63,572 nucleotides of DNA, filler included, from Asterionella formosa (GCA_002256025.1; 17 parts of 17 records of this genome joined end to end with filler, not necessarily neighbours in it), one strand, 5' to 3'; counted from the first letter of the whole stretch, positions 239 to 63,423 are shown. Notes: generated by a model not told the origin, from the sequence alone. Translations and numbers: made by a program.

Positions 239-1072
239 GGTGGGATGGTTGCACCGAACAGTTCTGTCAACGAGCGAATCAACTGAGCGATTGTACGTGT
301 ACAAAATGGCGCTTCTATCAAGTCAGCAAAAGTGATAGTGACTAAAATAGAATGAGAGGAATTTTTTCACAAGGTGGCAAGAATATCTCCACAGTGCAAA
401 ACATATGTCGATTTCATGTAATCATTATTATCTACAAATCTGTAGAACAAGTCAATTTGAGAGAAAACATATATCTTCATTTCTGAATAATGTCTATAAC
501 AAATTTGGCGCAAACCATAATTAGGATCCGATCAAGGAAGCATACTTGGAATTTTTTTTTAGTGTCCCCTACCGGTAAGTATCGCATGTCCTCGCCAAAT
601 AGTCGACTCGCTGATTCTGGCGCCCAGATCCCACCTGGCTTTATCCTCCATGCGGACTCGTCGGCATCCTAGATGTACATGTACGGGACGAGCTGCTGGT
701 AAATACGCATGGGAACCAAAATGTCCGCCCATGTGTCGCTGCGACCTGCTGCACGTAATATGTATGTAGTACCTGTATTCGCTACAACGGTACCAGGTAC
801 TCCGCAAATCCATACATGTATACCGGTAGCTAATACACATAACGGTATGCTCTTTGATTCTAATCCTACTGGGGCGTGATGAGGGCGTTGGCCTACTAAC
901 TATAATAACCGAAGTATATCCGGAAGTCTACCGGTAGTTGTTCAGTAGATTTTCCTAGTACCGGTAGACACATCGACTCTTTGAAATACTCTGCAGTAGA
1001 ACCGTCTTACCAGTACCAGGTACCACTTAAAAACTGTAAGCCACCGCCGCTACGGCGACTTTTGAACTGTAA

Positions 1073-1939
1073 GGGTCGTTCTTATCATTTTCGATTTGGT
1101 ATCATTTTTTTTGAAAAAGTATCATGTAACGGCTACTCGATTCAAACCGAAAAAATCCATTCTCCACAAAAATAAAAATAAAATTGTATCACCAAAAAGT
1201 ATCACGAAAATTCAACGGTTACGGGCTGGCTACAAACATGTGCTTTTCCTTCCTGACTAACAGTACATAATGGTACCAAGCCAGTCCTCAAACCATGCAA
1301 GAAATCTACGCGAATTATGCATATGGACTACTATAGTCAATGGTATTTGCACAGGTATTTGTTGTAGTCACGTGATCATTTTCGTATTCTATTGCCTAGT
1401 ACGTGTTGGACGAGTGATAGTAGAATGTACCGGTAGTGACAGCCAAAGCCAAAGTATTTGCACAGCTAGTATATGTCGTAGTCACGTGATCATTTTCGTA
1501 TTCTATTGCCTAGTACCTTGTCATGAATTCCCGGACCAGGTATCAGGGTACCAGGTACCTGGTACCTGTAATTAGATAGCGAGTATGTCTCTATGCACAT
1601 GACTCAATCTGTTCAATTTTCGACTCTGTTCTTTGGTGTTGTGGCTGAACATTACCACACACGGCCGCTATGATGATTATATTGTGCTTCTTTGATGCAC
1701 ACCATAATAATTTTTGTGTATATTATCTAGATGTCAATAAAAGTACTGCCCTGCAGGCGTATTTTCGGTTATTTTATTAGTGACAACGGAAATGATACCC
1801 GCGTGAAAACGTCAGTATCACTGATACCGTTTTTGGAGGGGGCAAAAAAAGGTATCAATTTTGTATCATTGATACAAAATTGATACCATCAAGTTACCGT
1901 TGCTGATACCGTGTTTTGATACCAACCGTCATTTTTTGC
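1073..1939. mobile_element. Non-autonomous DNA transposon-like element with GTATCA/TGATAC subterminal repeats
   Basis: Begins TAA|GGGTCGTT. GTATCA repeats at about 1095-1205 and mostly inverted TGATAC repeats at about 1790-1925, including a hairpin with 18-bp arms at 1851-1887. Right end is lost at the contig break. Confidence 0.4.
1364..1516 (+). repeat. 39-bp perfect direct repeat
   Basis: GTAGTCACGTGATCATTTTCGTATTCTATTGCCTAGTAC at 1364-1402 and 1478-1516, each preceded by GTATTTGCACAG. Confidence 0.9.
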
Positions 1940-2039
1940 NNNNNNNNNNNNNNNNNNNNNNNNNNNNNNNNNNNNNNNNNNNNTTAATTAATTAANNNNN
2001 NNNNNNNNNNNNNNNNNNNNNNNNNNNNNNNNNNNNNNN
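1940..2039. other. Artificial contig linker N44-TTAATTAATTAA-N44 (16 copies in the window)
   Basis: Identical 100-bp spacer with stops in all six frames, starting at 1940, 3985, 6033, 36982, 39029, 41076, 43123, 45173, 47219, 49265, 51310, 53355, 55399, 57443, 59487 and 61530. Confidence 0.98.
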
Positions 2040-2519
2040 TACCTGTGAGAGGGGGGGGGGTTGAGGAGTACAAACGAAACTAATGCTGCCATTGAGAGCA
2101 CAAAACTACCTCCAGCAGCAACAGGAGCAAGTGGTCATCCCAAACACAACACCATGTCATTTTCAAGAGACTAAAAGCAGCAAAGCATTAAATTAGTAAC
2201 CAACCAATACAGAGCTGTTAGTTTCAAATTTTTGTATCGGGGTTTCCTATGTAACATCATATTGACAATGTCCAACAAAATGGTTGATTCAAAATGGTAC
2301 TGAAAAGATTCAAGCAAGAGCCACTTTCAAAGAAAGAAGGGCGCCAGCCAAGCTGAGTTTGCAATTGAGGAAGACTACATTGTTGACCTGGCAGCCCGTG
2401 CCTGGGAAGTATCATTTGCCCAAGTTGACACCAAGCGGAATGCAATTGCCGGAAAGGGATGGGGAACAATGAACTAGTACAACACACATCTTCATAATGA
2501 AATACAACTGACTGAAGTT

Positions 2520-3020: not shown

Positions 3021-3430
3021 AGCAGGTATGTTGATTGATATAATGGGGTGGGATGTGGTGATGGCTGCACCAGTCCCAGTTGCCAGAGCTATAACACCAC
3101 CAGCAGCCTCAGCTGAAGAAGACAACAAGGATGAAGTCATGGCGATGGAAGAGTGATTTATGTGTTAACACAATAAATCGATATCAGTTGCTTGAAATGA
3201 GAAATTGGAGAAAATATGGAAAACCAGGTCGTATTTTCTAACCATTTCCCATTAAATAATTAATCTTCATGATGAAAAATAAAAAAGACCACTAAAATGC
3301 AAAATGAACAACTTAAAAAATTCGATATCATAAGTTTTATGCTTCAAATTGTTGAAATGATTTATTTATCTAAAAGGAGTACCGGTACATTCTATTCAAA
3401 GGGTTTTAATTGGGGTCCGTTGAAAATTTC

Positions 3431-8130: not shown

Positions 8131-8189
8131 GCAACAGAAAAGAATGAAGGAAGAGAGGAAAGTGAAAAAGAACGTAGTCAGAAAGAAAG

Positions 8190-8505: not shown

Positions 8506-9668
8506 AGAAGAAGAAGCAGCAGCAGCAGATGAAGAAGAATAAAAGAAATATGATGTTGGAAGGTTTGGGCTCAATAACCAGTTGAAAGTGTTATGGAAAC
8601 TGTAGATAATTGAATAATAGTAACTTAAATGAAGACTTTTAGACTCTATGTTTCAGAGCAAAGTGAGCTAAATGGTAAAGGATTTAAGTAGAAGCTAGGA
8701 GTTGTCACCAGTTGACAATGACAGTCAATTTGAGAGAATGCAAGTAAGTAATAGTGGAGTATCCACAATGGGCAAGTTGACCAGCATTAACTACAAAAGT
8801 TATGTGGGAACCAAATGTCTGGAGAAATTGGTATTTAACTAGTACTACTAGTGTCTATCCTTGTTCAATCAAGATTTTTGAACCTTATTCAAAGAAGCAC
8901 CATTTAGAATCCCCCATTTACTCTTGAATTCGGATGTCATCAAAAAGTCGAAACAAAGCCACTCTGAGGTTGTGGTTGCTCCTAGCCCTCTTTGTTTGAT
9001 TGTCACTTTCATCTTACAGCTCAATGATTTGAGCAAACTTGTCTTGATATCAAAATCTTGTTTTCTCCAAAGCAGCAGTGTTCTTGCCCCAAAACCCGAC
9101 CCTACACAGCTCTGTTCCATCTCAGACAAAAAGCCTTCATTGCCATCTGCAGCTCTTCCTCCTCACCAATCTCCACCATTGTTGTCAGCTTGAAATGCAC
9201 TGTATCATTGATGCAAACATGAGCTCTTTCTCCTCACCAATCTCCACCATTGTTGTCAGCTTGATGCAAACATGAGCTCCACATCATCACTGTTGCACCC
9301 AGCTTCGCCCATTTGTGACACTGGGTACTAGGCCGAGTATTTCTCCATCTCGAAGGGATTCCGTGCTTAACAAAATTATATGATGCGCCACATACTCGGA
9401 GCTTCTTCTTATAATAGAAAAATAATATGTTCTATTTTCTGCACAAGTAAAATATTTGGCTGTGTAGCACTGGACCAGATGTACACTGAGTTTTTCAGGA
9501 GCGTGGTGGACGACGGAAGCACGGGATTTACGCTAGCAGGTACCGGTAGTATGATGATGTGATAATTTGCTGCCCACCTTTTCTTATTGGCACGTTGCAT
9601 TCTTGCTTTACTTATTTATGTCCCCTTCCTTCCAGTCATCATTGTTCTTCGTCAGCTCATCGTCTCCA

Positions 9669-12450: not shown

Positions 12451-12825
12451 GATTGCAACGTATGTACCGGTAGGAGTAACGGTATTCTATTGTGTGCTGT
12501 GTTGCTGCTGTTTGATAATCTACTAGTTGCTGTTGTTGCGTTAAACCTTGGCTGTTGAACCTTATAATTTGTACCTTCTATGCAACGATGAGCAACGAGC
12601 GATGAGCTAAGCAGAGTGATGTTGGCAACTATTACGGGAACGTCTTTTGTCGGAACTACCGGTGGATGGAACAACTACAGTGGAGAGCGCAGTTTTTGGT
12701 TGTTTGGGAGGAGAGTGAAGATGAGCGAGCCGAGAAGAGGAGGATTACATTCCAATCTATGTACCTGCTACATACCTGTGGTACTGTCCTAATTACAGTA
12801 CGCACAGTTCGCCGCCATCGACCAG

Positions 12826-14570: not shown

Positions 14571-14992
14571 AGTAGCGCACAGTAGACGCAATTACCGGAC
14601 CTTCCATGTTTGTTCTCATAAACTTGCCACCTTTCCCCTACAGGTAGACTACGAGGTACCAGGTACTGTATGTTCCGGTACATTTTTTGATTTGATGAAA
14701 TGATTTATACTAAATACCGGCGGTATTTTGCACATATTTTAGTTAGGGGAACAATATGATAGTCCATTGCGGAGGTTTGATGAGCAAATAAGTAGGAGGA
14801 GTAGGTAGTAGAGTTCAATGAACATTCTTTCATGTAAGAAGTAGTACGCTGGTACGTGAATACCATGATGTGCATTCCCATACTTTTTTTAGGCAGTTGT
14901 TACCGGTAAACCTATTGACGACTACCGTACTAGCTGCTATCCCTCCTTTCTGTGTTTGCCTGGCAAATGAGTGAAATACCAAGTTGGAACAA

Positions 14993-17027
14993 ATGACGAA
15001 GGTAGTAAAAGCAACCATTGCTGGTTTCGTGTTTTATAGTTCGACTAGACCACTTCATGCCTTTGCACCTTCTTCCGTTTATGTTTATTCGACAAGGACG
15101 AGCTGCTGCCAACCAAGTTCCTCCGTGGTAGATTCAAAGCGGTCAAACCGATACAACAACTATGAAGAAGACGACGAAGACTTTTTGCTAGATACTCGAA
15201 CTTTTGAGCGAAGCCGCCAAGAGGAAGAGCTTAGGACTATGCGAATGGACGATGAACTAATCGACTACGAAACCGACGAAGTTTTCGAAGAAGTACCGGT
15301 AGAAACTGATGCTTTGGCTACTGGAAACTTTTGGTCAAATCCTGAAGAAGGGCTTGACATCTATCCTGACCGACCATCTCGTCGATCTAGACGACCATTG
15401 CCGCCTTCGACGGCGACACTACCACATCAATCACGACGACGACGACAATCCAGAGACAGTGATGGAGGATTGATGGCACCATCGATTTTTGGTGACAGGT
15501 AAGTTCAGAAGCTTTCTTTTTTCTAGCTACTTTTGGGCAGGGACTCATTATACACCTTGACTAACACTCGCTCGCTCTGTCGACAGAACAACGTTTCGAT
15601 CAGGAACTCCACCGCCACCAAACTCAATCAAGGAACTTTATGATCGCCTCTTTTGGTATGGATTTGATCCAGACGTGGAAAATTCAAGTCCAGAGGGATT
15701 CGATAAGACTGTTTTTGGAGGAACAAAGGGGAAATTTGATGGCCTATCTTATCTTGATGAATCCGATGGGGCAGCTCCTCAGCAGTCATCCCGGCGACGA
15801 CGTAGAACCAGAAGCATGGACTTCGAGGAAGATGGTGAATTTTTCGGACAAGACGAAGAAACAAGAGGATTAAATGAAGACAGAATATTAAGAAACACGG
15901 AAAAAAGTGAGAAGCTTGATTTTCCTCGACATGGACAGCGCATGTCGGAACCGACAGAGCCGACGGAGCGACCTTCTCGCAACGAGTACTACGACGATTT
16001 AGAAGAAGAATCCCAAGGACCAAATGTTCAGGACTCGCAATGGAGGAATTATTGGGAAGGCGATAAAAGGTATGTTCGGTTTAATGAGGACGAAAACAAA
16101 GGTGACGGAGTACGTGAACGACGACGAGAAAGGGCCCAACAACAAAATCCATTCACTGGTTTTCTTGATGATGTTTTCAATGTTGATAGAGATAAGATGG
16201 ACTACAAGGCCGAAGCTTACAATCGCCAACTTGGCAGAAGTCCCGTGGGAACTTACACATGGAACCAAGCCGCTGAACGACGGCCACGTAGTACTTCTGA
16301 CTACCAGTACAGGTATGAAGGTTCAGACGAAAGAGACTCAAATTACATTGAGGAGTTTGACTCAAGTGAAGATAAATTTGAAAATGAAGAATCATTCCCT
16401 AGCGACGTTGTAGTTGACGTAGATGCAGAAGTCGACGAAGTCACACCAAAAAACCAAAATTATCCACCCCGGAAGAAGCGCACCAGGGAAGAACGATCCC
16501 TTGCCTACGAGCTTGTACCGCCTGCTGGAGTTGCTGCATGGGGTCCATCTGGAGATCTGGGTTTTGATGCTAGAACAAAGGCGACCCTTGATGCTCTGGA
16601 TGATATTCGCAATGCGAAACGCAAGGTTGACATCAAGAGCGAGAAAGTGAAAGTAGCAAAGGAAGACATTATTATCATCAGGGCTGATGCAGAGTTGACC
16701 AAGAAACGTGCTAGCCGTGAAGATCCCCGAAGAATCCGTGCTCAACTGCTGCAAATTGAGTTGCAGCTGGAGGACGCTGCTCGTTTTTTGCGACAAGCAC
16801 GGAATGAGGAAGAACAAGCCAAGCAGGAAATGGAAAACCTTGAAGATCGCCACTGGGCGCTTCTCAGCCTATATGATGTAGACAAAGCATCTCAAGAAGT
16901 TGTGAATGCATTTGAGGAGCTCTACGCTGGGGAACCTGTAACCCGACTGAATAATGGCATCGACAGTGAATTTGCAAACGACTGGAAAACAACAGACGTT
17001 AAAAGGAATCAAGACCTCAGTCAGTAA
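14993..17027 (+). CDS. Probably plastid-targeted hypothetical protein (about 648 aa) with C-terminal coiled coil; exons 14993-15498 and 15587-17027
   Basis: Intron 15499-15586 (gtaagt...ctaac...cag) joins the ORFs in frame. N-terminus MTKVVKATIAGFVFYSSTRPLHA-FAPSS resembles a signal plus ASAFAP cleavage motif followed by a Ser/Thr-rich transit peptide. Confidence 0.75.
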
Positions 17028-20000
17028 TCAAGATGAATTTCGTCCTTATTACTTTCATCTTACAGTTTAGTATAAATACTGATTCTAGAATAAAATCTTT
17101 CAACTGGTTGGTCAACATAAATATTAGTATTCTTGTAATCACTACTAACAAATTACAGTTGTCATTATAAGCAATGCAAAGCAAGTGAAGCAATAGCTTA
17201 TTCCTAGCTGGTAGGTTGAATTAAAATGATGTTTCAATGATACTGGCATCCGATTATAAAATTTTTGGAAACAAAGGGCTAAATTATGGTCCTAGCTAGA
17301 TAGGTGTTATATTTCAAGTATTTCCTTTACAGCTCTTTATAATTATCGTTTTCAGGATAAGGCAAGAGTGGTTTGGGCGGCTTTGTAAATCATGGCAAGG
17401 AACCTGAAAGGATTGAGCAAGATGCAAGCACTATCATTTGAGATGCAGAGTGTCAAGCCTTTGTTGAAACAGCCGCTTGAGATTTCCCTGACAAAAAAGA
17501 AAGCAGAGAAGCCCCAACGACCTTACACCTGACATGATGCAGGTTAAGGACCAGTGAGTACGATGCATGACTTCCAGAGTTTTGTGAATGAAAATGCAAT
17601 TCCACCCAAAAAAGGGGTCTCCCTTCATGAAGTAGGCAAGGAATGACTGAAACATATCATTGAACCCAATTTGGATGTTTATTCCCTCCCCCCCCTAATC
17701 GTCTCAACAAAGGAGAGAATGTATCATATTGTTGTATTCTCCTTTGATTCTTCCATGATAGTTGATTTTATGTTACACAACACAACTGAGCTTGAGTCTG
17801 CCATCACCATCATTAATTTCATATTTTTTTAACATATTCCCTGTTTGTCATCAAATTAGGAAACAGTACTAGAAGAACCTCTACTCCAAAGTTCAAAAGC
17901 AAACCTATGATATGGAACATCTTGTCTTCATTTAAGATTACTTATGTACACTACATTCAAAGCTCAGCCACTCCTGCTATCAACACACAAAGTTACAGAA
18001 AACATTGCATCATAGTCTTTTGATTGAATTCATTCCTGCGCCTGTCTGTCATCCCCTAATATAAATAAGCCAACATTTCCACCATCTTCGTGTTATTCAT
18101 TCCCATATAATAGTTTCATTTATTCAGCGCCTTGAAACTACACAACTATGAATATTGCTGCATGCGTTTTATTTCCTGACTCAGCAGCTGTCAACAATAA
18201 ATCGAAGTTTGAAACTTCTAACAATTCGCGCCTGCTGGTCAAAATAAACACGACTAAACAAAATTCGCTATTTTGAAGTAATTCGGGAAAAACAGATTTC
18301 GACGAATTGTCATTTCGGAATTAAGTACTTAAGGGCTACCGGTATTTTAGTTAAAGCAAATGGGCTCTACTTGCTTTAAGAAAAACGACATTAAGCAAAC
18401 GTGCAAAGAGCAAATCTACTTTAAGAAATATTTTGCGTAAACTAGACAAACATAGACTTTACTGTGCCAAAATTCTGCCCCGAATTTTCTAGTCTTTTTC
18501 GCAAAGCTAAAAACGGAAGTTCTTTTCTACAATTTCTCGCCAGATCCTATAACCTGATGGCATGTAGAGTTGACCTATTCCCATACTTTGAAAAATGACT
18601 GTATCTAAGTATGTGAAAAGGGTGTCAAATGGTGAAAGCTAAATATAGACGAGTGATACATATTTATTTTATATATTCATGAAAAGTGTGTTTGATTACT
18701 CTGAATCAATATTTATATTAACCCTAGTTCTAGCGAGGGTCTCAATTGCAGGAACCTACATATACATATTGCATTATCACAGGAGTAACAGGTATTTTGT
18801 CAAGAATGGATCAACATTGTTCTGCTGATGGCTGAACATGTCACTGGGCACTCTGAAATGCCAATTTATTTTGTGCCAAAAATATAATCTAACATAATGT
18901 TTTGCTGAGGTTTGACTCATTCTCTTAGGTCTGACTATGGAAGCAGATGGCATAATACGCAAAACAGTTTGTTTTTGTAATTTTCGGTTAAATCAGATTA
19001 AAGCTAGCTAGTAAATTTAATTCAGAACAACATGCTGGCCGGTTTGGTTTATAAAGACGTATGTGGCACTAGATATAGCAAAATAACCGCAGCAACTTGC
19101 TCGTACTCTAGTACCAGCGTATCTTTTTGCCTGCAAGTTGTGGTACTAAACTCGGCCAAAATGACGATTTGGACAGATATTAAAACCTGCTGATCCAATA
19201 CTAAATAAACACGCTGGCTAGCTGGGACAACGGTTGTCTTTCATTCGTGACATGATCATTTAGAAATACTATTATGCTAGAATTCAATTGGCAGGGACTA
19301 TTTTAGGGTTAAACTCATTCCCCCAATCGAAAAAATTGGGTTTTTTACTGGAGAGCTAAATTCCATCAGGGTCAGATGCGCAAACAGAGTGGTGATCAAA
19401 GAAAATGATTACCAAGAACCCCCGCCAATGAGTGTACTTTCTTCGCATATGTTTTGTTATGCAATGACTAAAAATGCAGGGAACAAATATAGCGTTATAC
19501 ATCTTTGTAGAATGTATGTACCAGTAGCTATAGTGGATGCCCCTGTTCGAAATTCCAAATTTATTTTTGCCAAAACTATTATATCAAAAAAATCTTTTTT
19601 GATCTAGTAATATATAATATCGTCATTGCGCAATGACACTCTAATTATTTTATAGATTACTTTTATGACATTAAATATAAATTGAACAATAGTTTAAGTT
19701 AATTTTCATAGCAATGCATCCTCTGGTTCATTGCATGTATGAGTTTCATAATTTCACCATCTTCGGTCACCTTTCATCTCATGATGATGATGATCATGAT
19801 GACATGATCATCACATTGCTACTGCTAGCAGCATGTGATCTAGCAATTGACAAGACGCCATCATTTAGTGAAAGCTTGACTGTTGATGAGGTCAGAAGAA
19901 GAATCAAGTCAAGGATCCTGTTTACAATTTGTTAATAGGTGATAGATAACTGATTTGGTGGTTGGGTAGCTAGTTATTGTGACCTTTCAAGTAGTTGTTT

Positions 20001-33880: not shown

Positions 33881-33952
33881 GGGAGTTGCGGTAAAAGACG
33901 GTTTTTACTATAAGAAAAATCAGCTACATTTCTCGATTACCGCAAATTGCTC
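33881..33952. repeat. About 75-bp foldback mini-element, copy 2 (in the CSN5/rps21 divergent spacer)
   Basis: GGGAGTTGCGGTAAAAGACGGTTTTTACTAT...TTACCGCAAATTG, homologous to 12826-12902. Confidence 0.7.
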
Positions 33953-34194
33953 TGGTACCGGTACATCCACATGATGCAATGAACAAGCCTATGAAGCTAC
34001 CGGTATGTACCGTTATTATTTATTGCTGCTTGAATCCGATTTGTCCCAATTCGTTGAAAGGGCATCCCGGATACTGGAAAGACTTTATCAGTCCATCTGA
34101 TACCGGTACGCGTTTACTGACGTCTCTGGGCCGTCGCTTTTGCCGCATGGCGTGTGTACGAATTACTCACCTCCCATTCCATAGATTGATCAAC

Positions 34195-39292: not shown

Positions 39293-39408
39293 ACCTGTTG
39301 TATACATGGTGCTCCTCCAAGTTGGTCGTACATATCATAGACAGCATTGTAAATTATATGAACGGTGTGTTCACGAATAAATACCGGTACTACATACGAC
39401 CAGGTACC

Positions 39409-41075: not shown

Positions 41076-41824
41076 NNNNNNNNNNNNNNNNNNNNNNNNN
41101 NNNNNNNNNNNNNNNNNNNTTAATTAATTAANNNNNNNNNNNNNNNNNNNNNNNNNNNNNNNNNNNNNNNNNNNNCAAGGTATTGGCAAATATTTACGTG
41201 GTCAGTATGAGGTATGTAACAGGTCAAAATTCTACCATGTAGAATTTTTGGTAGAATTTGTTATCTCGTTTTGGTAGTATATTCTACCAATCATAATAAC
41301 GAGGTTAGGGTTAACAGTGATATTTTCAAGAAAATGCTACCGGTACCTGCAAGGAAAAGGAGAGCAATACCTGTATATGTTCTATCTACCGATAATTTCG
41401 GTAGTCCATAATTACTTCATTCTTAAAGTTCCTTTAACCCGTCTCAACTGTAATAATCACTGTTAATGATACTCGCTGCTATTCTATACAAGGATGCATG
41501 GACGCGAGATTGACACACGAGGATGATGGACTTTCGAATGGTAAGGCAAAAGATGGCAACAACACAGTATGCCCTGCTCGCTCACACTTGCTCCCATCGA
41601 ACACAACACAGCAACAATCCTGCGGATTCAACAGCACATGGTACATCCGTCACGTGGAAGCATCGCCCTCCAAGCACTGTAAAATGCCGTCACCAACCGA
41701 AGGTCGGTCGCTTCCGTTGCATTTCAGGCTATGTACCAAACCGTTCACACCGCGGACCAGCCGCCGCAAAACATGGCTGATTCTGGGATTCAAGACAAGT
41801 TGAGGACGGATCTGTTCCTGGAAG

Positions 41825-42178: not shown

Positions 42179-42996
42179 TGATACACTCGCAACATCTTTG
42201 CCAAGGTTGAAAACTGCCTTGCTTTCGCAGTTTGTAGTTCATATCGATTTCTATCCTGATATTTGGAATGGGTGTGGTTGGTTAAAAGTGTACATAACCA
42301 TGTACCATGCAGAAAACTATTTGCTTGTCCATGAAGGTTTAGTGGTGATGGCGTTCCTCCAGTTGTGGTGGTTCCAATGGACATGACAGCACCATCTACA
42401 GTTGGAAGTAGTGTGAATGTTGAGGGGCAAATTCAACAATTAACAAGCAGGCAACGATTTGCAATTATAGTTGGACCTCATTATGGTTCTGGCCTACAAG
42501 CAACTGTATGTAATCCCAGCAAGGCTCCAACAAAGTCGCAAGGACTTTGTGAAGTTGGAATTGCGGAGAGAAAGTCAGTCAGGCTATTTACAAGGCTTGA
42601 GAGGGGGAGGAATAAATGATTTTATTATTGGGTAAGTTACAGAGCAGATTACCGGTAGTTGTGGTTAAAGTGCTCATACAATGATCAACAGAATATATGA
42701 GGCATATTGTCAAGAACTTTCATTGACCCACATTTTCAACAAAATGCTTATTGATTGATGCAATGGTGAAAATCTACAACTACGTGTTTAGTTTATTTCT
42801 ACCACATTAACTAGCATGCACATTATTACATTCTCATTGTTTCCATGTAATGTTAGTCATTTGATATGAGTTGATTTACCGATGTGTTAATATGTATTGT
42901 AGGAGTACCATAGTATGATAGCCGACACAAAATTAATGATCACTCTGCATACCGGTATACCGGCACGTATATTGAATTGCACGACGAAGTACCTGG

Positions 42997-43122: not shown

Positions 43123-44931
43123 NNNNNNNNNNNNNNNNNNNNNNNNNNNNNNNNNNNNNNNNNNNNTTAATTAATTAANNNNNNNNNNNNNNNNNNNNNN
43201 NNNNNNNNNNNNNNNNNNNNNNGGAGAGGAAGGGAAGCCCTCCTCCCTGGCTGCTCTCCTTTGACCAGAAGAAGATGAAGACATGGCCGAAATCTAAAAG
43301 CGATGACGATCGATTTATTGAGGAGGTTGATTGATATGTAACGATATGCATATGTATATGCATACCTATTTTGGCAAGAGCGAGCCATTTTGAGTATGAG
43401 CAAGCAAGTCTTGAAATATTCCAGGAAATTCTATATAGTCATTCATGTCTAAACATCTTTTTATATAATGCACTGTTATTTATAACTGTAAAAAATTTGT
43501 GTTTGAGGTGCTTACCAGGATTACCAAATTTGGTCAACACAAACACAAATTTTGGGGTTATGGGTACAACGATTTGTGTTATAATACACATGATATAATA
43601 ATTTTTTATTATCAGAGCGCGCCCAGTAGAATAAAGCAATTAGTAATCGTTTTTCTCTGTGTCCGCCAACACTTGGATTTGTCATGATTCAATCAGTTGC
43701 AGTTTATATCGTGATCCGTTTATCCTTTACTAGGCCCAGCTAAATGAGGTAATTTTATTTTATTTGGATGTGCCTCACTCAACATTTTCGTGGTCATTTA
43801 TTTCAACAACTGGAACACAGCATCGATTGGGCGTCAAGACATCCTTTATGTAGATGCATAAAACAAATGACTTGTTCATAGTAAATATTGTCGTATTGCT
43901 AAAATTGAAAAGTTTGTGGTCTAAGCAGTTCATAGTGGTCTTGAGCAGTTTTTGACTGTGTACCAGGTACCGCCCACTCACAAACTACTTATCTATTTAT
44001 TGTCCAGTTCATGCTCTGTACGTGCGTCCTGCTAGTAAACCACCAGTTGCACTACCTTTCACTACCTACGGCAAAAATGGTAGGATTAATTGTCAATAGT
44101 GGCACAGTACCAGTACCGGTATCAACAACGTCATATGACATGCTGGTGTTGTTACAGGAAATGAAAGAGGAATATGGAATATTTGGCAACTACTTCGTGT
44201 ATTTTCGTGAAGTTTAATAATATTTATATCGTCATATTTATTGCCCTTGTCCCGTCAGTCACAGTTTAATTATTTATATTTTTAAGATTCAACGACTTGT
44301 TTCGCCACATGCATTCATAAAATTCATTTATTAATCGTCTCTATGTATTATGTACCTTTGCTGACCTTTTATACCGGTATATTTATGATGCATACTAAGT
44401 TGAAGAAAAACTTAAGTGCGGATTTCCCCGTTCCTTCCTGGGATCAGTACTTACCAGGTTCCTGGAACCCGGGCCGGGTCCGGGACCACATACATACAGG
44501 AGTTCCATATGGTAACAGATACCATGCAATACATAGACCTCGTGAAGGACATGGTGCTGAGGAGGAAATTCAATTGCTGTAGGATATATAAGAATATGGA
44601 CAACAAACTGTCCCTGGATGTGAACTCGACATCCTTGCCGATTTATATAGAAATTAAAATATTCTTTTTTTCGTACCTGGTTGGAGTACCAGGTACCGTA
44701 TACAGGTCACACATGTTCATTGTATACAGTATCCGTACAGTACTTCATACAGCACTTCGATTCATGTCCAAAACGCACAAGAAGAGCTATGTAGCTTTTC
44801 CTTGTTGAATGAGAACACTATTCTGTTAACAAGGTACGTGGTACCTAGTACCATGGTACCAGCAGCACTCCAGTATCGACTTTCAGTCGCTCATTAAAAA
44901 AGTGCCCCAGACGGATTCAGGATTCACCACC

Positions 44932-45172: not shown

Positions 45173-45728
45173 NNNNNNNNNNNNNNNNNNNNNNNNNNNN
45201 NNNNNNNNNNNNNNNNTTAATTAATTAANNNNNNNNNNNNNNNNNNNNNNNNNNNNNNNNNNNNNNNNNNNNCCTGCTGCTGCATGACCTGTGATACCAG
45301 TCTTCCATTGGGTAGCAGGTACCAGGTACCGGTAATTACCAGGTACCCTGGTACCCGTTATATCCCGCTACCTTTTTTTGTACTCCTATCTTACATTACC
45401 GGTACATACCTGATGATGCGGTCTATATCATCATAATTTTTGCATCTGTCGTCCCGGTACCCCTAGTACCTGATAGTGTTGTAGTGAAGCAATTAGTGCT
45501 ATTCAAGGTACCCTAGTACCAGGTACCTGAGTTTAGCTTGGGTAGCGAACAACCTACAACCATTTACTAAAGGCAAAAGAACTTAACAGTTACAAAACAT
45601 ACTTTAACTACTGGTTCGTTAGGTTCAATGGTTCTACAAGTGTTTGTAGATTCAGTCAAAAATTGAAACATTCGGGTCATTAAGCAACTGCAGTAGCTGC
45701 TTGTATGAATGAAGAACAAGTGGTGCAT

Positions 45729-46559: not shown

Positions 46560-47070
46560 CGTTAGTACATGATACCGGTACTGTGGTCTACCGGTAGTTA
46601 AAAATATAGTGTACCGGTACATACGCAAAATGCCAAGAAGAACCACAATGATGATAAATGGCGGTGCTGACGATGCAGCAGAAGGAGTACCTTGTACCTG
46701 GTACTGTTACATTGGCGAGAAAGTTTTCGGTAAATGAGAAAGTTAGCCACGTTTGCCCCATAGGAAGAAGAGTCTTTTACTGCAACTCTCTCTAGCATTG
46801 TGTAGCATTATTGCGTACCGGCAAATGGTGTACCGGTAGCCTAGTAAGTACCGATGCAACTACCGGTACGTTAATAATGATGACGTAGAAAGGAGAAAGC
46901 ATATACCGGTCATATGAAGTGTACATAGCGGTATATAGTACCAGGTACAGCAGAAAACTGGTAACAACAGGTACTACCGGTATACCGGTATACATGGTAC
47001 CTGGTAACTAAAGAGACAATGCATCATGACGCAATACCGGCACTGGTACCAGGAACCAGTACCAGGTACC
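46560..47070. repeat. Dense tract of TACCGGTA / TACCWGGTA / GGTACC palindromes
   Basis: TACCGGTA at 46573, 46589, 46612, 46831, 46861, 46975 and 46983, plus several TACCWGGTA, upstream of the CREST-like gene. Confidence 0.85.
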
Positions 47071-47739
47071 AAATTACCAGCTCGCTAACTTACGGGGATG
47101 CGTGACTAACAAATCACGAAGCAAGTGGTGGCGGTTATCAGCAATCCCCTCTCGCTTGTCACACATCTCAGTCGCACAATCTTGTGAACAAACTCAAGGC
47201 TTTTATGCTCCATCGAACNNNNNNNNNNNNNNNNNNNNNNNNNNNNNNNNNNNNNNNNNNNNTTAATTAATTAANNNNNNNNNNNNNNNNNNNNNNNNNN
47301 NNNNNNNNNNNNNNNNNNATTGATTTCGTTCAAACAGTTTGTTTTGATGCCGATGACTATGATAATGGTTTATTCCTTGATAGTTTAGTAGATCATGATG
47401 CTGCTGCTATTAATGGTCCAATCATTCAGAACAGAGAAATAAACGACATTATAAACCCTACCAACTTCCGTCTTTGCGCACAAAATATATCTGATTTGTC
47501 CACTTCAGCATGACAATCTCACCAATCAACCCGTAAACAAACACATTCTACCGGTACTTGTTCTCGTTGAAATTTTCAATTCTCACATGATACTACATCT
47601 ACTATTTCGATTCAGCATAGAAGGAGATACGAAAATGTGCGTAACAGACTACTGTCCACATAGCTATAGTTATAGAATGATTCTGATTAGAACGCATTTC
47701 ATTTTCATATCGCTCGCTCGTTTCTGCATTTGGCATACT

Positions 47740-48200
47740 GTACTTGAATTAACTATTGAACTTGTCTGCATCTTTGATACCATCAAGAGAGCGAAAGCAA
47801 GTGGCTCTTTTCATTGTTGTTTGCTCGTAGGAAGAATTTGATATCTGTATCGTCATTTGCTTGTTGGAATTGTCCGTTGCCTCAAACCTGCTTGGCGTGT
47901 GCGTACACACAGCCACTGTCGACTTGTTTTCATTGGAATGTGGTTCTTGTATTCACTGTTAAACTTGTCCGTATCTTTGTTACCATCAATAGAGCGACGC
48001 AGATGAAGTGGGTCTCTTCATTGTTGTTTGCTCCTGAAAAAGTCGGTGTCCATGTCCGTGTCATCCTCATCAATAGAGAGACAAGTTCTTTCGTTGGAAA
48101 AATTGGTACTCGTGGTATCATCATTCGCTCGTTGGAACCACTGTCCGTTGCCTCAAACCTGATTAGCGTCTGAGTACCGGTATGTGCACTGTCGACTTTA
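47740..48200. repeat. Degenerate tandem duplication (units of about 200-270 bp)
   Basis: Shared blocks AACTTGTC..ATCTTTG.TACCATCAA.AGAGCGA, TTCATTGTTGTTTGCTC, TGTCCGTTGCCTCAAACCTG and CACTGTCGACTT each occur twice in the same order. Confidence 0.75.
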
Positions 48201-48801
48201 GTACATTACAGGCGGAGTGACTTTGCTACTAAATTGCGTGATATAATAATATACCCTGTAGCACAATGCAGAATACAGTTGCTTCCCAATCATCTCATCA
48301 TGATTGATAAGATGATACTGTGATATCATGATAAGGTTACATCGATGCATACATCACCAAAGTATGATACGTAATATTGAATAAAGTACATCACATAGCT
48401 ATGATACATTGATCCTAAAACTATGATGATTTTATAGAATGTTTATGATATAATTTTGATCAAAATATGATCATGTAAAAATAATACAATGACAATAAAA
48501 TACGATAAAATATGTATGCAAGTGTTACCAAGACATCATAGAATATAAATCAAGCAATCATAAAGTATGTTAATTAATATATGTGTTTGTCATTTAATGT
48601 ATACAGTTAAAGTCAACAGTTAGCTAATATGATAGTATTATACAGTGGATAGGATCTAAGTATATGGATGCATTGATAGGTACATCACTATAATATGATT
48701 TGTGACATGATGGATTGATGCATATCACATACCGGTATCCTCAACAACCAGCCATCACGTTCATTGTTGTGTCGTCTTTCCTTTTTTTAGCTATATATAT
48801 G

Positions 48802-49005: not shown

Positions 49006-50294
49006 CTATGGGGAAAGATGGAAGTAAGAATTTTTTTTACTCATAAATAGTTACTAATAAAATGGTTATTTGTTTTTAATCAAGTACAGCCATTTGCAAA
49101 TAACCGCACGCTGGTGTCGTTTCTTTTGCTCCATCGACCGAGTCGGACAGAAGTGTCATGTTTATGACAAGTCTCTTCGTTCCAACCACTCCTCATATTC
49201 GAAACCCGTTTGATTCGTCGTTGTGGCAAGTTTTGTTGTGTTGCGCAGGAAGTCACAAATAGGCNNNNNNNNNNNNNNNNNNNNNNNNNNNNNNNNNNNN
49301 NNNNNNNNTTAATTAATTAANNNNNNNNNNNNNNNNNNNNNNNNNNNNNNNNNNNNNNNNNNNNCGAAGCAATGAAGTACAGCGAGGTGAACGCACATCA
49401 TGTCATTTCAATATAATGTATGTAAGATAATATTTTATCCATTTCCAAAATGCACTGATGCCCACATCCCCCTTTGCTCTCGAAAAAGCTATTGCGAAAC
49501 TTAGTCGTGACTGAATACAGATAGAAACATGACCAGGGACTAAGTTCTCTTGGAGAATAATATAGCATACATTGTCCCTCGATGCTGCGTCACTCATCAT
49601 CTTGTGCATCAGAGGTCGCAGCGCTGTGTAACCGGTAGGTGAAAGGTGCGAGAACTACCGGTATCTACCGGTATGCTACATCAACAGTACCGCGGTACAC
49701 CTCTACCGGGTAACTGTACACGTCTATAATCATTTTTATATAACAGTACCGGCAGTCATCTTCATAAACGCCAATTTCAATCGAGGAGACATATCAGTTA
49801 TTACAGTCATGTCCGTGACTGGCAGTTGTAATTTGCTCCTCTTCTTTCTGCCTTCCTTTTCTTGAATCGCCAGCCCAGCCACAACAAATTTGAGGGACTG
49901 TCAACTGCTGATCTGCCTGATATACTTTGCAAGTAGCAATGATCTTTGGCTGTCCACAGCCACATCGAGCGCGTTGGTGTGACATTAACAGTAGCTGTTA
50001 CAGTAGCTATCATGACGATTGTGATCTTGCTTGCTTCCACGAAGTTCTAATGATAATGAATGGGTGATAATTGAGTTGTGATACATATCGGTACGAATAT
50101 TCAAAACAAATGAATCGGTTATTTTACAATAGGTTTCTATTTGCTACTCAGATATTATGTAATATTTAGGGTCATCCAACTCTGTTCATCGGTTTATGGT
50201 TACTGTAGATTGTAGATTGTCGAAGTGTATACTGTCATGGTAGTAGTGAGAAGATACTCACAAGCAACAACGGGCATGGGCCATGACAGGTCAT

Positions 50295-50810
50295 CTTGAA
50301 TACCGGTACCGGTAGGCTGTTTCTTCATAAGATAGTCGTATTATTACGGGGATGTAGACTAGTACATACTGTATTTATTTATGATCCATACTGTCCCATT
50401 CATGCATGATAAACGATGTCCAATTATTCTTGCTGGTGGTTTCTCATGTGCCGGTTCTAGATGTAGTACCAGGTACTGTAAATACCCACTACATAGTTCT
50501 AGGTACCAGGTATCTAGTACTACCACCGGTAGACTATGCCGTTGAGTTCGCATTGGTTGTAATATTTTGTATTCCCTTGTTGTTAGGTACGAGGTACCGG
50601 TACTGGTACCAGGTACCGGTATTAATGATCATAATGGTACCTGGTACCAGGTACCCCGGAAATCCGGTACCAGGGGTACTAGGTACTCCAGTATACTATA
50701 AGTAAACACCGTACAATACCAGGTACCAGTACTGGTATGTACCATTTGGGTAAACTCTACTGTACAGGACCTGGTACCAGGTACCATCCTGTGCTTTTAG
50801 TACCAGTATG
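50295..50810. repeat. Dense tract of GTAC-core palindromes
   Basis: TACCGGTA at 50301, 50307, 50595 and 50614 and many TACCWGGTA/GGTACC copies, upstream of the gene at 50991. Confidence 0.85.
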
Positions 50811-54927: not shown

Positions 54928-56639
54928 ATTTCCAGAGCTTTACTACAGTACCGGTACCTTACCGTTCAGGTTCATACTCCCCACAGCATGATTGGAATTA
55001 GGTACAAGTACCTGTTACCAAGTACCTGCAGAAGGGATAGCAATTGTTGTTATGGAACTTATTTTAGTCTGCATATTGTCATGAGCATGTGTTCACATAA
55101 CGCAGCATGACTTTGCCCAAGGCAGACTTGCCCGAACCATTGCTGCTTGCGCCAGTGAAAAATATGTTGTTGGAAAAGCAGTACGAGCGTGTCTAGCTAC
55201 CGGGTAGAGAGTTGTAGCTAGCTTATGCTAGTCAATTAAATTAATGACAGCCAATTCAACATTGCTACTAAGTAAACAATCAGTGACAAAGGACGTACAA
55301 TAACTTTGAGGAGCTCTTGCGGATTAGATATTAGTAACAATTTTCCGTTGTATAGCTTAGTTCCACCATCCCTTTCCACCGGTACGGAAATCGTCCTCNN
55401 NNNNNNNNNNNNNNNNNNNNNNNNNNNNNNNNNNNNNNNNNNTTAATTAATTAANNNNNNNNNNNNNNNNNNNNNNNNNNNNNNNNNNNNNNNNNNNNAA
55501 CAACTGTTCATTCACAAACTAGATCTGTTTCCCCAGCACCATGATCACTCCAATGTCTTGGTTGCTCACACTTTACAAAAAGTGAATTGACATCTCATGT
55601 CAAAATCAAGATTCATTCCATTGAATTATTACACGCCATTGTTCATTCAAATATAATCATATTAAAATTTGATCAAATTGATCAAATCACATAAAATAGA
55701 ATCCACGATTCAATATTTTGTCAAAACTTCACATGCGAGCTTCTATCACTGGATGCAAGTAACCTTATTTTCTGAAATAGTGGCATTAATTCATGTGAAT
55801 TGACAAATTATTCGACTCATCGGTACATGAAATTTCGAAAATTGGCATGTGTTGTATGCTGCGGCTTAGATGATGTTTCTACTTTATAGGCTGCAAGCAA
55901 TATCAAGAAGGACCTGGTGACATAAATATTCTGGACAACATTGCGTCATGTTTCAAGTTATGATTTTCAAGTACTATGGCAAGGAGAAGGAGAAACAAGA
56001 TCTCACACGACCAAGGTGACAGATGTATTTGGAAGATTATTCAATCTACCATTGCCAATCTGGTATGGAGTGCATACCAGGTATAGTCTAAGCCTCCTAC
56101 CAGGTACCCTGTACTAAGTCTATGCACAAGTACAGATGGCGATAAATAACTTCTTGGATCATTATGAAACATCATCCAGGGCAAATCCACAAATCATCAG
56201 ATAAAGTTGACGTCCAAAAAATGACCAACCATCGTCAACCTTTATAGGAAAAAGAGATCATTTTCCTCTCTTTGGCAATGGCGATCAGCCATTCTACAAA
56301 CTGCAAATAGTGGAAAAGAATAGCGCTCTCCAGGACCTTCTTACCCAGTACCAGGTACTCAGAGTTCCACCAAAAAATGAGAGCCAGCCAACATTCAATC
56401 ACCACATCATTTTTTACTTATATGATGAAATTCGAACCAAGTAAGAATTTTATTGTAGAGAATAGAAAAGGAATCGCTTATCATGTAATCAGTTCTAAAG
56501 TAGAACATACAGTTATGGAGGTCTAAACCAATTTAGCTATGTCACACATTTTGATTTAAAAAGCAATCTGTCATAACATATTTTTTACATTTAAAAAAGC
56601 CAAGGCAGGGTTGATCTTGAATTGTAAGTTACCATTACT

Positions 56640-56885: not shown

Positions 56886-57542
56886 TATATCTACTGGTAG
56901 ACCAACTGTCATATAAACCGGTACTTACTCTGTCTATAAATATAGAATAATACCTGTAGACATGTAACCACACGTGTCATCACCATACTACTGTTCCTGG
57001 TCACCATTGAATGATGATACCAGAGGTGTGTTCCAATATCTCTCTTGCTTTTTTCTTTGCCAGCAGTACAGCGTGGTATCTGGTGGAGTATTATGTTGTC
57101 CTACACTCGAATACCATACCAAGGAGCTGTCAAAAGTCTATGTACATAATTTGAACTCCAAGTACCTGGTACCAGGTACTTACCTTGAATCGGGTTCTGA
57201 GGAGATGCATACCGGTAGTACCTGGGACGACGTTCGAGTTTACAGGACGAAACGCTCAAAAATTTGGCCCCCTCCCGGTCATTTTGAGAACTCATGTCGG
57301 ATCAATAGCACCACCTAACACCTTTTTGTGAGCAATAAGCATTTTCTTTTGTGCCTGATGGAAGATAGATTTGTCTTCTTAATCCGTTAGAGTGACATTT
57401 GAATTTTTCGACGAAGGATTCATGTCGACGACAGTCAACGGANNNNNNNNNNNNNNNNNNNNNNNNNNNNNNNNNNNNNNNNNNNNTTAATTAATTAANN
57501 NNNNNNNNNNNNNNNNNNNNNNNNNNNNNNNNNNNNNNNNNN

Positions 57543-57701: not shown

Positions 57702-58119
57702 TATGAGAAATCAACCGGAAGGGATCAATAACCTGTCAGAGAGAGAGAGAGGGAGAGACGATCACTTACAATGCATCGACAGCGATCGATTGATAGAAAA
57801 AATGAGTTTTAGAGTGAAAGAATTAGGGATACTACTGCTACTAGCTACTGGGAAAGGCCTACTTGCGTATGTTCTAGTACGGGGTAACCGGTACCCTGTA
57901 CTAACAATCATACTGATAAAATCTATATATATTCGTAGTCTAATATATTATATGCAAAACCGTTAAATGAATGACTGCACCACTTCGCAATGAACATATA
58001 TCATAAATACGAGTATAATACAAAGCAATAAGAGGTACCGGTACTCATATAATTACGGGGTATTCAACATTCCACACCCCCTTTCCACCAGCCCATAATC
58101 ATGCTGAAACGACGCAAGG

Positions 58120-59486: not shown

Positions 59487-60212
59487 NNNNNNNNNNNNNN
59501 NNNNNNNNNNNNNNNNNNNNNNNNNNNNNNTTAATTAATTAANNNNNNNNNNNNNNNNNNNNNNNNNNNNNNNNNNNNNNNNNNNNGGGGGGTCCAGGAC
59601 AATGAAGTATACGGTATGATCTTTAATCAATGAATTTAGATTTGTTTATTCTATAACTTTGATCATAACATATTGATCATATGATGAATGGTGTCGTTGA
59701 TGAAAAATGAATGTAACGAATGCATTTTTCGAGTAAGCCTATCCTAATGTAGAATGATCGTATGTTAGCAACGTAATCATTCATAAGCGAACAGCAAAGA
59801 CGCAAGTGGTGCCGGCGATTTGATGCAATTATTTTCAACCAAAGGGAGGAGTAAGTAGAACGGCAATGATGACTAAATATTTGCTGCTCCTGGCTGCTAT
59901 CATTTTCTTTTTTCACGCACTGCAGGAATAATTCTTAAACGCTATTCATGGTCTAATATTTTATCAACAACACTATATCCGTCGTGACGCGGGTAAATAA
60001 ATCCCTGTAAAGAACATATTTTCATTTATTCTACATATGCGAATATGACAATGAATGCCATATTGTTTTCCGGACTCACATTGCATGTGCTATGATAAGA
60101 ATAGTGTATCACTACTACCGGTATCATCCTCAAATCATTAACAACACCATAAAAAGAATACAAAACTTCCACAAAGTTGATTTCATTGCTACTTCTTTCA
60201 GTCGATATCAAC

Positions 60213-61211: not shown

Positions 61212-62574
61212 ATTTGATTAACACGAAGCAACAGAAAATTTTCCTACTGGGGAAAACCGGATAGGTCTGAATATTACAACTATTTGTCATATAAATGTAA
61301 TCATGAACATATCTATTTAAGTTTCTTAGTGCATGCTCACTCTATGTGTACCTGTTCCATGCATAAAATCAATGTATCAGCTATACTGATCTGCTGAATC
61401 TATCAAAGCTATGATACCAGGGAGTTTGTGGACATTGACCTTGCCCGAAATGGCATGCTCGCAGCAAATAGGGTTTGCATTATGATCATAAGACATGTCA
61501 ATCATCCTAAAGCAAGGTATACCGGTTTANNNNNNNNNNNNNNNNNNNNNNNNNNNNNNNNNNNNNNNNNNNNTTAATTAATTAANNNNNNNNNNNNNNN
61601 NNNNNNNNNNNNNNNNNNNNNNNNNNNNNTATTATTAAAATCATAGCATTGTTGCTATTGTCGCACATAATTCTGTTAAGGCGATATGTTCAGCATTCTG
61701 CTGGTTTTTTATTAGGCACATCGGCCACTAACTGACCAACAGGAGGGTTCATGACCATTAAAATTTCCTGGGCAGATTCATCAAAGTCGGCAGGTATGGC
61801 CCTCGGCACAGTACCCTAACCAGACATCATCATAGGGTTAACCCATGGATTTGCTTGTATAAAACATGCACGGAAGAAATAACATGAATAGCGTTAGCTG
61901 TGTTAGTATGATAATTTGCTCCACGTAGAATTTCTACGACAGGAGAGGAACAGGAACCACAGGATTCCAAACAGGAACAAGGTTAGTAGTGTTAGTAATG
62001 TTAACTCCATGAATCTTATGTTTGACTGTTGTTTCATATCCCATGCGTGGCCGGCTGCACTAAAATGCATGTGCCCTGCCATCACCACTGAGTATAAAAT
62101 TATCATGTACAAATTTACGCTTGAAATGGTGTTTGTATTCTTGATACATCACAGGACTGTATTTAGCAATGCGAAGACGATCTTTTGTTAAAATTGACAC
62201 CAGTCACGCTTATTTTCTTGATGCGTCATGGAATTGTCTTCAACTTCAACTATTTATTTACGATTTTGTGTTAGAAAATTGACACCAGGCACGCGCGTTC
62301 TCTCGACATAACACGATTGCCTTCAGCGATGCGAAGTCGATTTTGGCTCATGGTAGAACTCATGCTTGAGGATGTGCTTGAGTTGATCTTTGAATGATTG
62401 TTGACTCTCGAAGTAAGTCAAAACCAAGCGAATCAATTTTTTTTCTTTTCATTGTTCCACTCAAACACTTGTTGCCACGCATTGTCGATCAAGCAAAATG
62501 ACAATCAACCTCAAATCTTCCTTGGCGGAAACCTCTTGATCTTCTGCATGAGTTATCACGAGTTTTAGGAGCAT

Positions 62575-63295
62575 CTTTAAGGTCTTGAGACAGGCAGCAA
62601 AGTCGAAGTCGATTATAAACATGTTGAAATGTTTTATTGAGTAATATCATGGCATCCAGCCACTGTTATTGACTCTCAGAGATATCATGAAGAAGGTAAT
62701 CTTCCAGCCACATCACTATGACTTTCTTGTTGAGACTGTTATGTTGGGACTGAGCATCTGAGTGTATTGCAACGCTCATCCAGTCAGACAAGACGATATC
62801 TGTGAGTCATCTTTTGTAGCAGTAGGTGAACAAGCAAGGAATCTGCTGGACTGAAAATATATGTGTTAGCCATATCACAGGATTTACTGAAATCAATAAC
62901 AAGCTTCCCCTGGCTGAGCGTCAATTGATCATTTCTTTGCTGTAAGACTCCAAAAGTCGACCTGGCTTGTAAGGATACACAAAGAAGTTTGAATCTTGAT
63001 GTTTAGTATGTTGTTATCCTTCATCAATGGGACCACTGGAACTTGAGAGGACATCAACAATATTAATTCTAATTGGACTCCTTTTGAATTCAAAGTGAAG
63101 TATCTAACTAGAAGTAGTAGTATTTGTTGAATATATGAGCTTATTTGTTAATCCTTGTGTGTAACTCGTTCTCCAAGTCGACACCAAAATATACAATGAG
63201 GGTTAGTCGAGTTCTCTCATTATTGAGTTCTTATACATATATGATATAACACTAACCCTATATACATCTGTATTGATGCGCAAGATCGCTCAACT
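62575..63295 (-). mobile_element. Gypsy 5' end: LTR 63295-63096, leader and degenerate gag
   Basis: Reverse complement matches the 39409 LTR (AGTTGAGCGATC...GATACTTCA) and the gag start. Confidence 0.82.
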
Positions 63296-63423
63296 GGTAA
63301 CTGGTACCAGGTACCTGGTACCTGGGTCGCAACCTTAACTTCGTGTATACTCCTATATACTGTATTTATTTTATGTTCGGATTACATTGTTTTATTACCG
63401 GTAAACTTTATACCTTAATATAC

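Follow-up and report, generated by a model that had tools for sequence, protein, structure and literature searches.

Among described sequence elements, those closest to the one considered here are predicted promoter motifs of oomycetes. In Phytophthora infestans, the palindrome TACCGGTA (M94) and a second word, TACATGTA (M93, with 4,150 copies in promoters), are both high-confidence promoter motifs (Roy et al. 2013, PMC3597505). The inverted repeat motif-9 lies upstream of 1,284 Phytophthora genes (three species), and TACATGTA upstream of 12,070 Phytophthora genes (Seidl et al. 2012, PMC3520976). A 2023 study of Plasmopara halstedii equates its streme-5, ATACCGGTAT, found upstream of 206 genes, with motif-9, GTACCGGTA (PMC10031896). 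The same palindrome of 8 nucleotides (nt), TACCGGTA (class A below), and a spaced companion, TACCWGGTA (class B), recur through a stretch of Asterionella formosa DNA of 63,572 bases (the window). An earlier note on this DNA, made from the sequence alone, had treated the motif as a possible eukaryotic analogue of HIP1, the highly iterated palindrome of cyanobacteria; the word is not new, (G)TACCGGTA being already published as a predicted oomycete promoter motif.

Motif-9, M94 and streme-5 have the same 8-nt core as the diatom element, are inverted repeats, lie upstream of genes and belong to stramenopile hosts. They differ from it in that they precede a minority of oomycete genes (the 1,284 and 206 given above) and are tied to infection-stage expression and RXLR effector genes, whereas the diatom word occurs about 0.8 times per kb, often several times per promoter, near or inside the 5' untranslated regions (5'UTRs) of unrelated housekeeping genes, and is joined by the spaced form GTACCWGGTAC and by chains of overlapping copies. 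The sister word TACATGTA (motif-1, M93 or AM-20) is likewise a TAC-NN-GTA palindrome abundant in promoters and differs from TACCGGTA in the two central bases only, but in contrast to its abundance in Phytophthora it is present in just 3 copies, without enrichment, in the diatom window. For inverted-repeat motifs, Seidl et al. infer homodimeric factors (PMC3520976), and PsMyb37, a single-Myb, MYB-related protein of P. sojae, binds TACATGTA in yeast one-hybrid and gel shift assays (PMC11134190). Searches of the open-access literature (PMC, bioRxiv) for TACCGGTA return oomycete or unrelated work only, with no report from diatoms, and for GTACCWGGTAC or the class B form, unrelated papers only.

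The other system that invites comparison is HIP1 itself, GCGATCGC, which resembles the diatom motif in being an octamer palindrome present about once per kb, with exact copies far outnumbering variants and a methylase-type core (in part from PMC4390886). Unlike HIP1, the diatom motif is almost never found in coding sequence and is associated with the 5' side of genes.

Abundance and form of the two palindromes

The window joins 17 contigs, one of 30,849 bases (6133-36981) and 16 of about 1.94 kb, through N44-TTAATTAATTAA-N44 spacers; the A. formosa DNA examined totals 62 kb, and all counts refer to that sample. By eye, at least 49 copies of TACCGGTA had been seen where about one was expected. 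The exact number is 49, with each copy located by eye among them, whereas 100 dinucleotide-preserving shuffles contain 0.40 copies on average and never more than 3. Class B, previously put at some 30 or more, has 35 copies (shuffle mean 0.30). The density of class A is about 0.8 per kb, and that of the two classes together about 1 copy per kb. The 84 sites form 32 clusters and are found on 14 of the 17 contigs, in agreement with the claim that most of the unlinked contigs carry them; 30 of 70 pairs of neighbours are at most 60 nt apart.

When both strands are counted (98 occurrences), the numbers of TACCGGTA expected under Markov models of orders 1 to 6 are 0.68, 1.35, 5.7, 31, 72 and 93, respectively, so that, as is typical of HIP-type elements, an octamer palindrome present about once per kb (49 copies in 62 kb) lies far above the Markov expectation (98 versus 5.7 at order 3). 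Disappearance of the enrichment under a 5th-6th order model had been named in the earlier note as grounds for rejecting the idea, and it does largely disappear there. The test is circular, however, because the model learns the motif from the very 62 kb to which it is applied (98 of the 109 TACCGGT words belong to TACCGGTA itself), and the enrichment is therefore not refuted.

The sites are neither a repeat family nor an artefact. Base counts are flat beyond positions +/-1 of class A and +/-2 of class B, so that the consensus outside the core that would mark a dispersed repeat or miniature inverted-repeat transposable element (MITE) is missing, and self-BLAST of the window reveals a long terminal repeat (LTR) retrotransposon family and a few short repeats, none of which carries sites internally. 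These observations bear out the view that the flanks are unrelated and that neither a single transposon family nor one repeat consensus accounts for the copies. The motif is also present in other data, with partial coverage: of the 9 class A sites in the 20 kb compared, 7 lie within contig pieces listed for X7, an independent DNA run, with none of the listed differences from the window falling within a site, and contigs of polyA RNA runs contain sites as well.

Class A shows weak preferences in its flanks (G at -1, 19 of 49 copies; C at +8, 17 of 49), and base counts farther out are nearly flat. The 24 kinds of one-mismatch variants have 0-11 copies each, 55 in total; the commonest is the CpG transition, TACCAGTA or TACTGGTA (11 + 5 copies, 16 of 55), and the remainder show about equal decay across positions. 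The true core of class B is GTACCWGGTAC, with G at -1 in 30 of 35 copies and C at +9 in 31 of 35, and about 60% of the copies extend to GGTACC...GGTACC. The arrangement of half-sites is strict. TACC-n-GGTA is found 49 times at spacing 0, 38 times at spacing 1 and 1-7 times at each spacing from 2 to 12; the central base at spacing 1 is W in 35 cases and S in 3. The everted arrangement, GGTA-n-TACC, has 3 and 2 copies at spacings 0 and 1. Close pairs of class A sites are frequent, with distances of 29-30 nt at 929/959, 27954/27983 and 46831/46861.

Copies also overlap through a shared TA or GTAC, and 7 of the 70 neighbour pairs are exactly 6 or 7 nt apart, e.g., TACCGGTACCGGTA at 50301 and GGTACCAGGTACCTGGTACC at 1547, 50636 and 63303. 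All four chains of two class B sites join an A centre with a T centre and are, as a result, perfect palindromes of 20-22 nt.

A separate observation concerns the central base of class B, which on the plus strand is A in 26 copies and T in 9 despite the arbitrary orientation of the contigs, with runs of the same orientation within contigs (e.g., 6 A and 1 T in 49365-51309). On the sense strand of the nearest gene, the centre is A in 12 of 18 cases in a hand-made table, which is not significant.

Position relative to genes and transcripts

Supported coding sequence makes up 23.7% of the bases (14,702 of 61,972) and contains 1 of the 84 sites (binomial p = 7e-9), or 1 of the 32 clusters (p = 0.003). 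The 30.8 kb contig carries 22 sites. Its 5' or divergent intergenic DNA (11.1 kb) accounts for 19 of them, its 3' or convergent intergenic DNA (8.9 kb) for 2 and its genic DNA (10.9 kb) for 1 (p = 6e-4 by sites). HIP1 occurs throughout genes and spacers, in coding and noncoding DNA alike. The diatom sites are not spread in this manner (1 of 84 coding; 19 versus 2 in 5' and 3' intergenic DNA), and, in addition, the two classes differ in their distances from start codons, so that the proposal of a genome-wide HIP1-like process does not hold for this sample.

The distances were measured against 11 supported start codons. The 150 nt upstream of these, which amount to 3.5% of the noncoding bases, contain 8 of the 49 class A sites (p = 3e-4) and none of the 35 class B sites. 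The zone of 1 kb upstream (19.4% of noncoding bases) includes 23 of 49 class A sites (p ~1e-5) and 18 of 35 class B sites (p = 2e-5), that is, both are over-represented on the scale of about 0.5-1 kb from the start codon by which the oomycete motifs are recognized. The nearest class A site is 15 nt from the start codon in the PP2C gene, 50 in Vac14, 77 in the AAA_16 ATPase gene, 85 in gene X, 90 in the leucine-rich-repeat (LRR) protein gene and 130 in the open reading frame (ORF) of a membrane-protein-like product, and 346, 370 and 532 nt in others, compared with 208-803 nt for the nearest class B sites. Upstream DNA of 500 nt or more is available for 10 genes, and 9 of these have a site within 1 kb, PhyH being the exception. 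The two densest clusters, with 11 sites each, are located upstream of the membrane-protein-like ORF and of a VHL-beta-like gene.

Spliced RNA contigs cover the sites at 12465, 14901 and 15294, and an unspliced one covers 27954-28040, the first in-frame ATG inside it being 27904. Since RNA contigs cover them ahead of the ATG, five class A sites (12465, 14901, 27954, 27983 and 28033) are in 5'UTRs. Thus, the claim that a single copy of TACCGGTA lies in a called exon is correct for coding sequence (15294) but overlooks these five in RNA-covered untranslated exons. The nearest full-length homologues of gene X, in which the coding site is found, are 35-39% identical, and the region around the exonic site is of low complexity. 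RNA contigs do not show transcript starts. Most of the region from 17.7 to 23 kb is without RNA contigs, which is not taken as a sign of silence.

As a side note, RNA contig ends fall near A-like words at 13027, 28102/28087 and 14747; these come from one study and are not used as support.

Possible origins and roles of the sites

TACCGGTA and GTACCWGGTAC are fairly likely to represent cis-regulatory sites of promoters and 5'UTRs, the predicted targets of one or more dimeric general promoter factors. One sequence-specific dimeric factor, or a pair of related ones, would bind the sites, recognizing the half-site GGTA(C) at a spacing of 0 or 1 bp; class A would act near the transcription start or in the 5'UTR, and class B further upstream. 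Because the sites precede unrelated housekeeping genes, usually in several copies per promoter, the factor may be a general promoter-marking regulator of gene 5' ends rather than a pathway-specific one. By analogy with PsMyb37, it could be MYB-related; there is no Myb gene among the Pfam matches of the window. Since oomycetes also carry this octamer ahead of their genes, motif and reader are probably ancient among stramenopiles, and both would have been inherited from an ancestor common to diatoms and oomycetes. The diatom motif is best read as an extreme-density form of a stramenopile promoter palindrome, not as a eukaryotic HIP1. The idea of a process that creates or preserves the sites survives in part: the DNA-binding factor, which was among the options offered, is now favoured, and the genome-wide HIP1-like headline is not.

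Diatoms are major primary producers, and little is known about how their promoters are marked and controlled. A word that precedes nearly every gene of this sample is the same as a promoter word of oomycete plant pathogens, and the pair of regulator and site may date to the ancestor common to both groups. This would suggest a route to the reader of the oomycete motif, through factor families common to the lineages that have the word. The motif might also aid the annotation of 5' ends in fragmentary diatom genomes from lake metagenomes and might serve as a building block of synthetic diatom promoters.

Several observations weigh against promoter factor binding. Counted by clusters, the large contig has 8 on the 5' side and 2 on the 3' side, a bias that falls short of significance (p = 0.10), and half of the sites are on short contigs without an assignable gene; these contigs may be biased to repeat-rich DNA that is hard to assemble. 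Class A is unusually sharp for a transcription-factor site (49 exact copies versus 0-11 per variant), and, together with the even decay, this sharpness also fits neutral decay of precisely made sites. Two dimers could hardly occupy pairs in the 6- or 7-nt register simultaneously. Finally, the Vac14 promoter of X7, an independent strain, carries two 6-nt insertions that resemble the motif and are absent from the window, which points to a generating mechanism. One, GTACCC, is behind 28185, where TACCGGGTA of the window corresponds to TACCGGTACCCGGTA of X7; the other, TACCGG, is behind 28223, where the window is without a motif. Among the 12 indels listed, these are 2 of the 4 that are 4 nt or longer.

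Because of these two strain indels, a site-generating process is retained as a minority possibility. The sites would then be made by a mutational process acting preferentially in open promoter DNA and would be neutral or secondarily co-opted, which would make them a rare eukaryotic counterpart of highly iterated palindromes, an explanation considered unlikely. The process could consist in excision footprints of a TA-targeting cut-and-paste transposon, of the form TA + CCGG + TA or TA + CC(W)GG + TA, or else in templated small insertions and slippage of TACCGG-like units. Footprints formed by annealing of two overhangs with one central mismatch give a pattern like the W centre. Both forms of the diatom motif are indeed TA-flanked palindromes, with W at the centre of the odd form in 35 of 38 copies, and the build-up of chains that share a TA in an exact register, the even decay with the CpG transition as the commonest variant and the insertions behind 28185 and 28223 are all compatible with such an origin. 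The remnants of pogo-like and Harbinger transposases show that DNA transposons were once present in this genome, and the sister motif TACATGTA equals a rare Tc1 footprint of Caenorhabditis elegans (Seidl et al., PMC3520976).

Other observations count against this origin. No element with matching ends was found in the window: its only trace of the Tc1/mariner superfamily, in what is a small sample of 62 kb, is a decayed pogo-like ORF (7609-8147) without ends of the CCGG/CCWGG type, and the 48 instances of TACC(N)GG in the same sample that are not followed by TA have no common downstream sequence that could represent a transposon end. Neither of the X7 insertions is, in our reading, a clean TA to TACCGGTA event or a clean exchange of TA for TA + 4-5 nt + TA. 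The flanks of the two classes differ (G at -1 in 19 of 49 versus 30 of 35), as do their distances from start codons, which a single insertion process does not predict, and independent footprints would mix their centres freely, in contrast to the consistent pairing of A with T in all four chains of class B. The same octamer is present upstream of oomycete genes, where Seidl et al. weighed a footprint origin for the sister motif, since found to bind a protein, and rejected it (PMC3520976). In a stronger version, which is rather unlikely, an active process inserting TACCGG-type units, through footprints of TA elements with CCGG/CCWGG ends or through templated insertion at breaks, would write palindromes into promoters, some of them co-opted as factor sites; if true, it would amount to a eukaryotic self-propagating highly iterated palindrome behind the TAC-NN-GTA words of the diatom and perhaps of oomycetes.

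A role at the RNA level appears quite improbable. Copies of TACCGGTA in 5'UTRs would pair into stems that adjust translation or stability, or would be read by an RNA-binding protein, in line with the finding that the five class A sites adjoining RNA-supported genes all fall within RNA contigs, 15-129 nt ahead of the start codon, and with the possibility of 8-bp stems between the close pairs spaced by 29-30 nt. However, many sites are outside RNA contigs or far upstream (9541, 29512 and 29748), all class B sites are at least 208 nt upstream, and a perfect dyad whose halves are separated by 0 or 1 bp is typical of what a dimer recognizes in double-stranded DNA. In addition, the oomycete counterpart is defined on promoters in the reports cited above, and an Rfam search of the window matched no family.

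CCGG and CCWGG are classical methylase targets, and the enzyme family concerned reads both by flipping out the central base. A HIP1-like system, in which the palindromes arise or persist through a CCGG/CCWGG methyltransferase coupled to a repair or restriction-like activity, would suit the density and sharpness of the motif and the fraction of such words inside motifs (49 of 135 CCGG and 35 of 120 CCWGG in the window) but is very improbable given the exclusion from coding sequence and the 5' bias, which are unlike HIP1, the lack of any methyltransferase gene among the Pfam matches of the window, and the observed/expected ratio of CpG (0.77), which about equals that of TpA (0.76) and so gives no sign of heavy CpG methylation.

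Comparison with Tc1/mariner footprints yields TA-flanked short palindromes, an odd form with an ambiguous W centre and a possible build-up of chains as common features, and, as differences, the lack of a matching element among the sequences of the window, the separate start-codon distances of the two classes and the presence of the word in oomycete promoters. Scans of viral contigs list 120 stretches with paired TACCGGTA, from phages and giant viruses; they are taken as chance pairs or tandem repeats because class B is absent from all 120 loci. Viral-contig scans for the class B chain and for the retroelement ORF gave 0 matches each. A scan of genome contigs for three close copies lists 117 stretches, all bacterial, with the highest class B counts in one Chitinophagaceae repeat. 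Among the matches listed for a metagenome scan with Vac14, two loci (64% protein identity) are almost wholly coding and contain no site, and so are uninformative on other diatoms.

Location of sites, gene content and other features of the window

Positions of class A and class B sites in the window and their surroundings
Position	Sites	Surroundings
570..1022	4 A + 2 B	cluster
1428..1564	1 A + 2 B	B pair forms a 20-nt perfect palindrome (1547-1566)
3380..3387	1 A	lone
9541..9548	1 A	lone, 346 nt 5' of longin/synaptobrevin ATG (9894)
12465..12472	1 A	lone, PP2C 5'UTR (minus strand), 15 nt before ATG 12450; spliced RNA contig 11398-12599
12928..13144	1 A + 3 B	PP2C / gene X divergent region
14657..14908	1 A + 1 B	B (14657) 82 nt before first base (14747) of gene X RNA contig; A (14901) within that contig, 85 nt before ATG 14993
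15294..15301	1 A	sole site in supported coding sequence; gene X exon 1, supported by spliced RNA, codons V-P-V
18337..18344	1 A	lone, long convergent intergenic region
23666..23674	1 B	lone, near Vac14 3' end
27954..28040	3 A	Vac14 5'UTR (minus strand); 50, 79 and 129 nt before ATG 27904; RNA contigs to 28102
28707..28849	2 B	803 and 937 nt 5' of Vac14 ATG
29512..29755	2 A	Vac14/PhyH divergent region
33857..34108	3 A + 1 B	divergent region of JAB/MPN gene and ribosomal S21 gene
39382..39389	1 A	lone, adjoins end of LTR-like repeat
41338..41345	1 A	lone
42650..42957	2 A
43961..44379	2 A + 1 B
44687..44695	1 B	lone
45320..45525	2 A + 3 B	with overlapping chain TACCAGGTACCGGTA
46573..47068	7 A + 4 B	130-617 nt 5' of minus-strand membrane-protein-like ORF (ATG 46443)
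47549..47556	1 A	lone
48175..48182	1 A	lone
48730..48737	1 A	lone
49656..49673	2 A	spaced 10 nt
50301..50783	4 A + 7 B	208-683 nt 5' of VHL-beta-like diatom gene (ATG 50991); contains TACCGGTACCGGTA and a 20-nt palindrome
54949..54956	1 A	lone
56075..56357	3 B
57163..57217	2 B + 1 A	B pair forms a 22-nt perfect palindrome (57160-57181)
58036..58043	1 A	lone, 77 nt before ATG (58120) of AAA_16 ATPase gene
60116..60123	1 A	lone, 90 nt before ATG (60213) of leucine-rich-repeat gene
63305..63403	2 B + 1 A	B pair forms a 20-nt palindrome (63303-63322) at end of LTR-like repeat

The genes of the window are eukaryotic, with Pfam matches to PP2C, Vac14, PhyH, JAB/MPN, ATG14, longin/synaptobrevin, ribosomal S21, an AAA_16 ATPase and an LRR protein. 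The closest named relatives of the PP2C protein are from the diatoms Grammatophora, Seminavis and Attheya (53-59% identity) and those of a second gene from Cylindrotheca, Amphora and Mayamaea, and a 9.9 kb stretch of the large contig is present in 20 sequencing-run rows from 13 lake or freshwater studies. Judging by these matches, the DNA is nuclear and comes from a freshwater diatom. The product of the gene at 50991 resembles a diatom VHL-beta-like cluster (Atlas score 0.96), which is a lead rather than proof. The 5'UTR of the longin/synaptobrevin gene contains a 72-nt GT..AG intron (9809-9880), the joint of which is seen in two RNA runs of one study.

A short element of about 70 nt with inverted ends, AGTTGCGGTAAAAG ... 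TTACCGCAACT, is present in three copies (12829-12898, 33884-33950 and, on the minus strand, 46720-46787), each in a promoter region beside motif clusters; related words are found at 28808 (minus strand) and 19136. It has no match in Rfam and may represent a tiny MITE, a gene for a small RNA or an additional cis-module.

Fragments of an LTR retrotransposon are located at 39604-40805, 52871-53353, 51410-52856, 61630-63094 and 13966-14640; one ORF among them is gag-like, and another has a retroviral protease domain. Identity between two LTR-like copies is 93.7% over 1.48 kb. In three copies the LTR-like repeat ends in ...ACA (one mutated to ACT) and is followed directly by GGTA and motif clusters. 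Decayed DNA-transposon genes, all with Pfam scores near or below the curated cut-offs, comprise the pogo-like DDE_1 ORF with a helix-turn-helix (7609-8147) and Harbinger-type genes (Plant_tran / DDE_Tnp_4) at 4458-5138 and 21042-21488. Adjoining the pogo-like remnant is a tandem array (8187-8517) of a 51-nt unit in 6 copies with 71-100% identity. Two long perfect palindromes, at 1851-1887 (37 nt, 18-nt arm) and 52838-52863 (26 nt), are unrelated to the motif, the latter lying at the junction of the LTR-like repeat and the gag-like ORF. A telomere-like word, TAGGGTTA / TAACCCTA, occurs 9 times on both strands, about 15-fold above the order-3 expectation, in part within the LTR-like repeat (e.g., 63250-63270 and 39430-39450).

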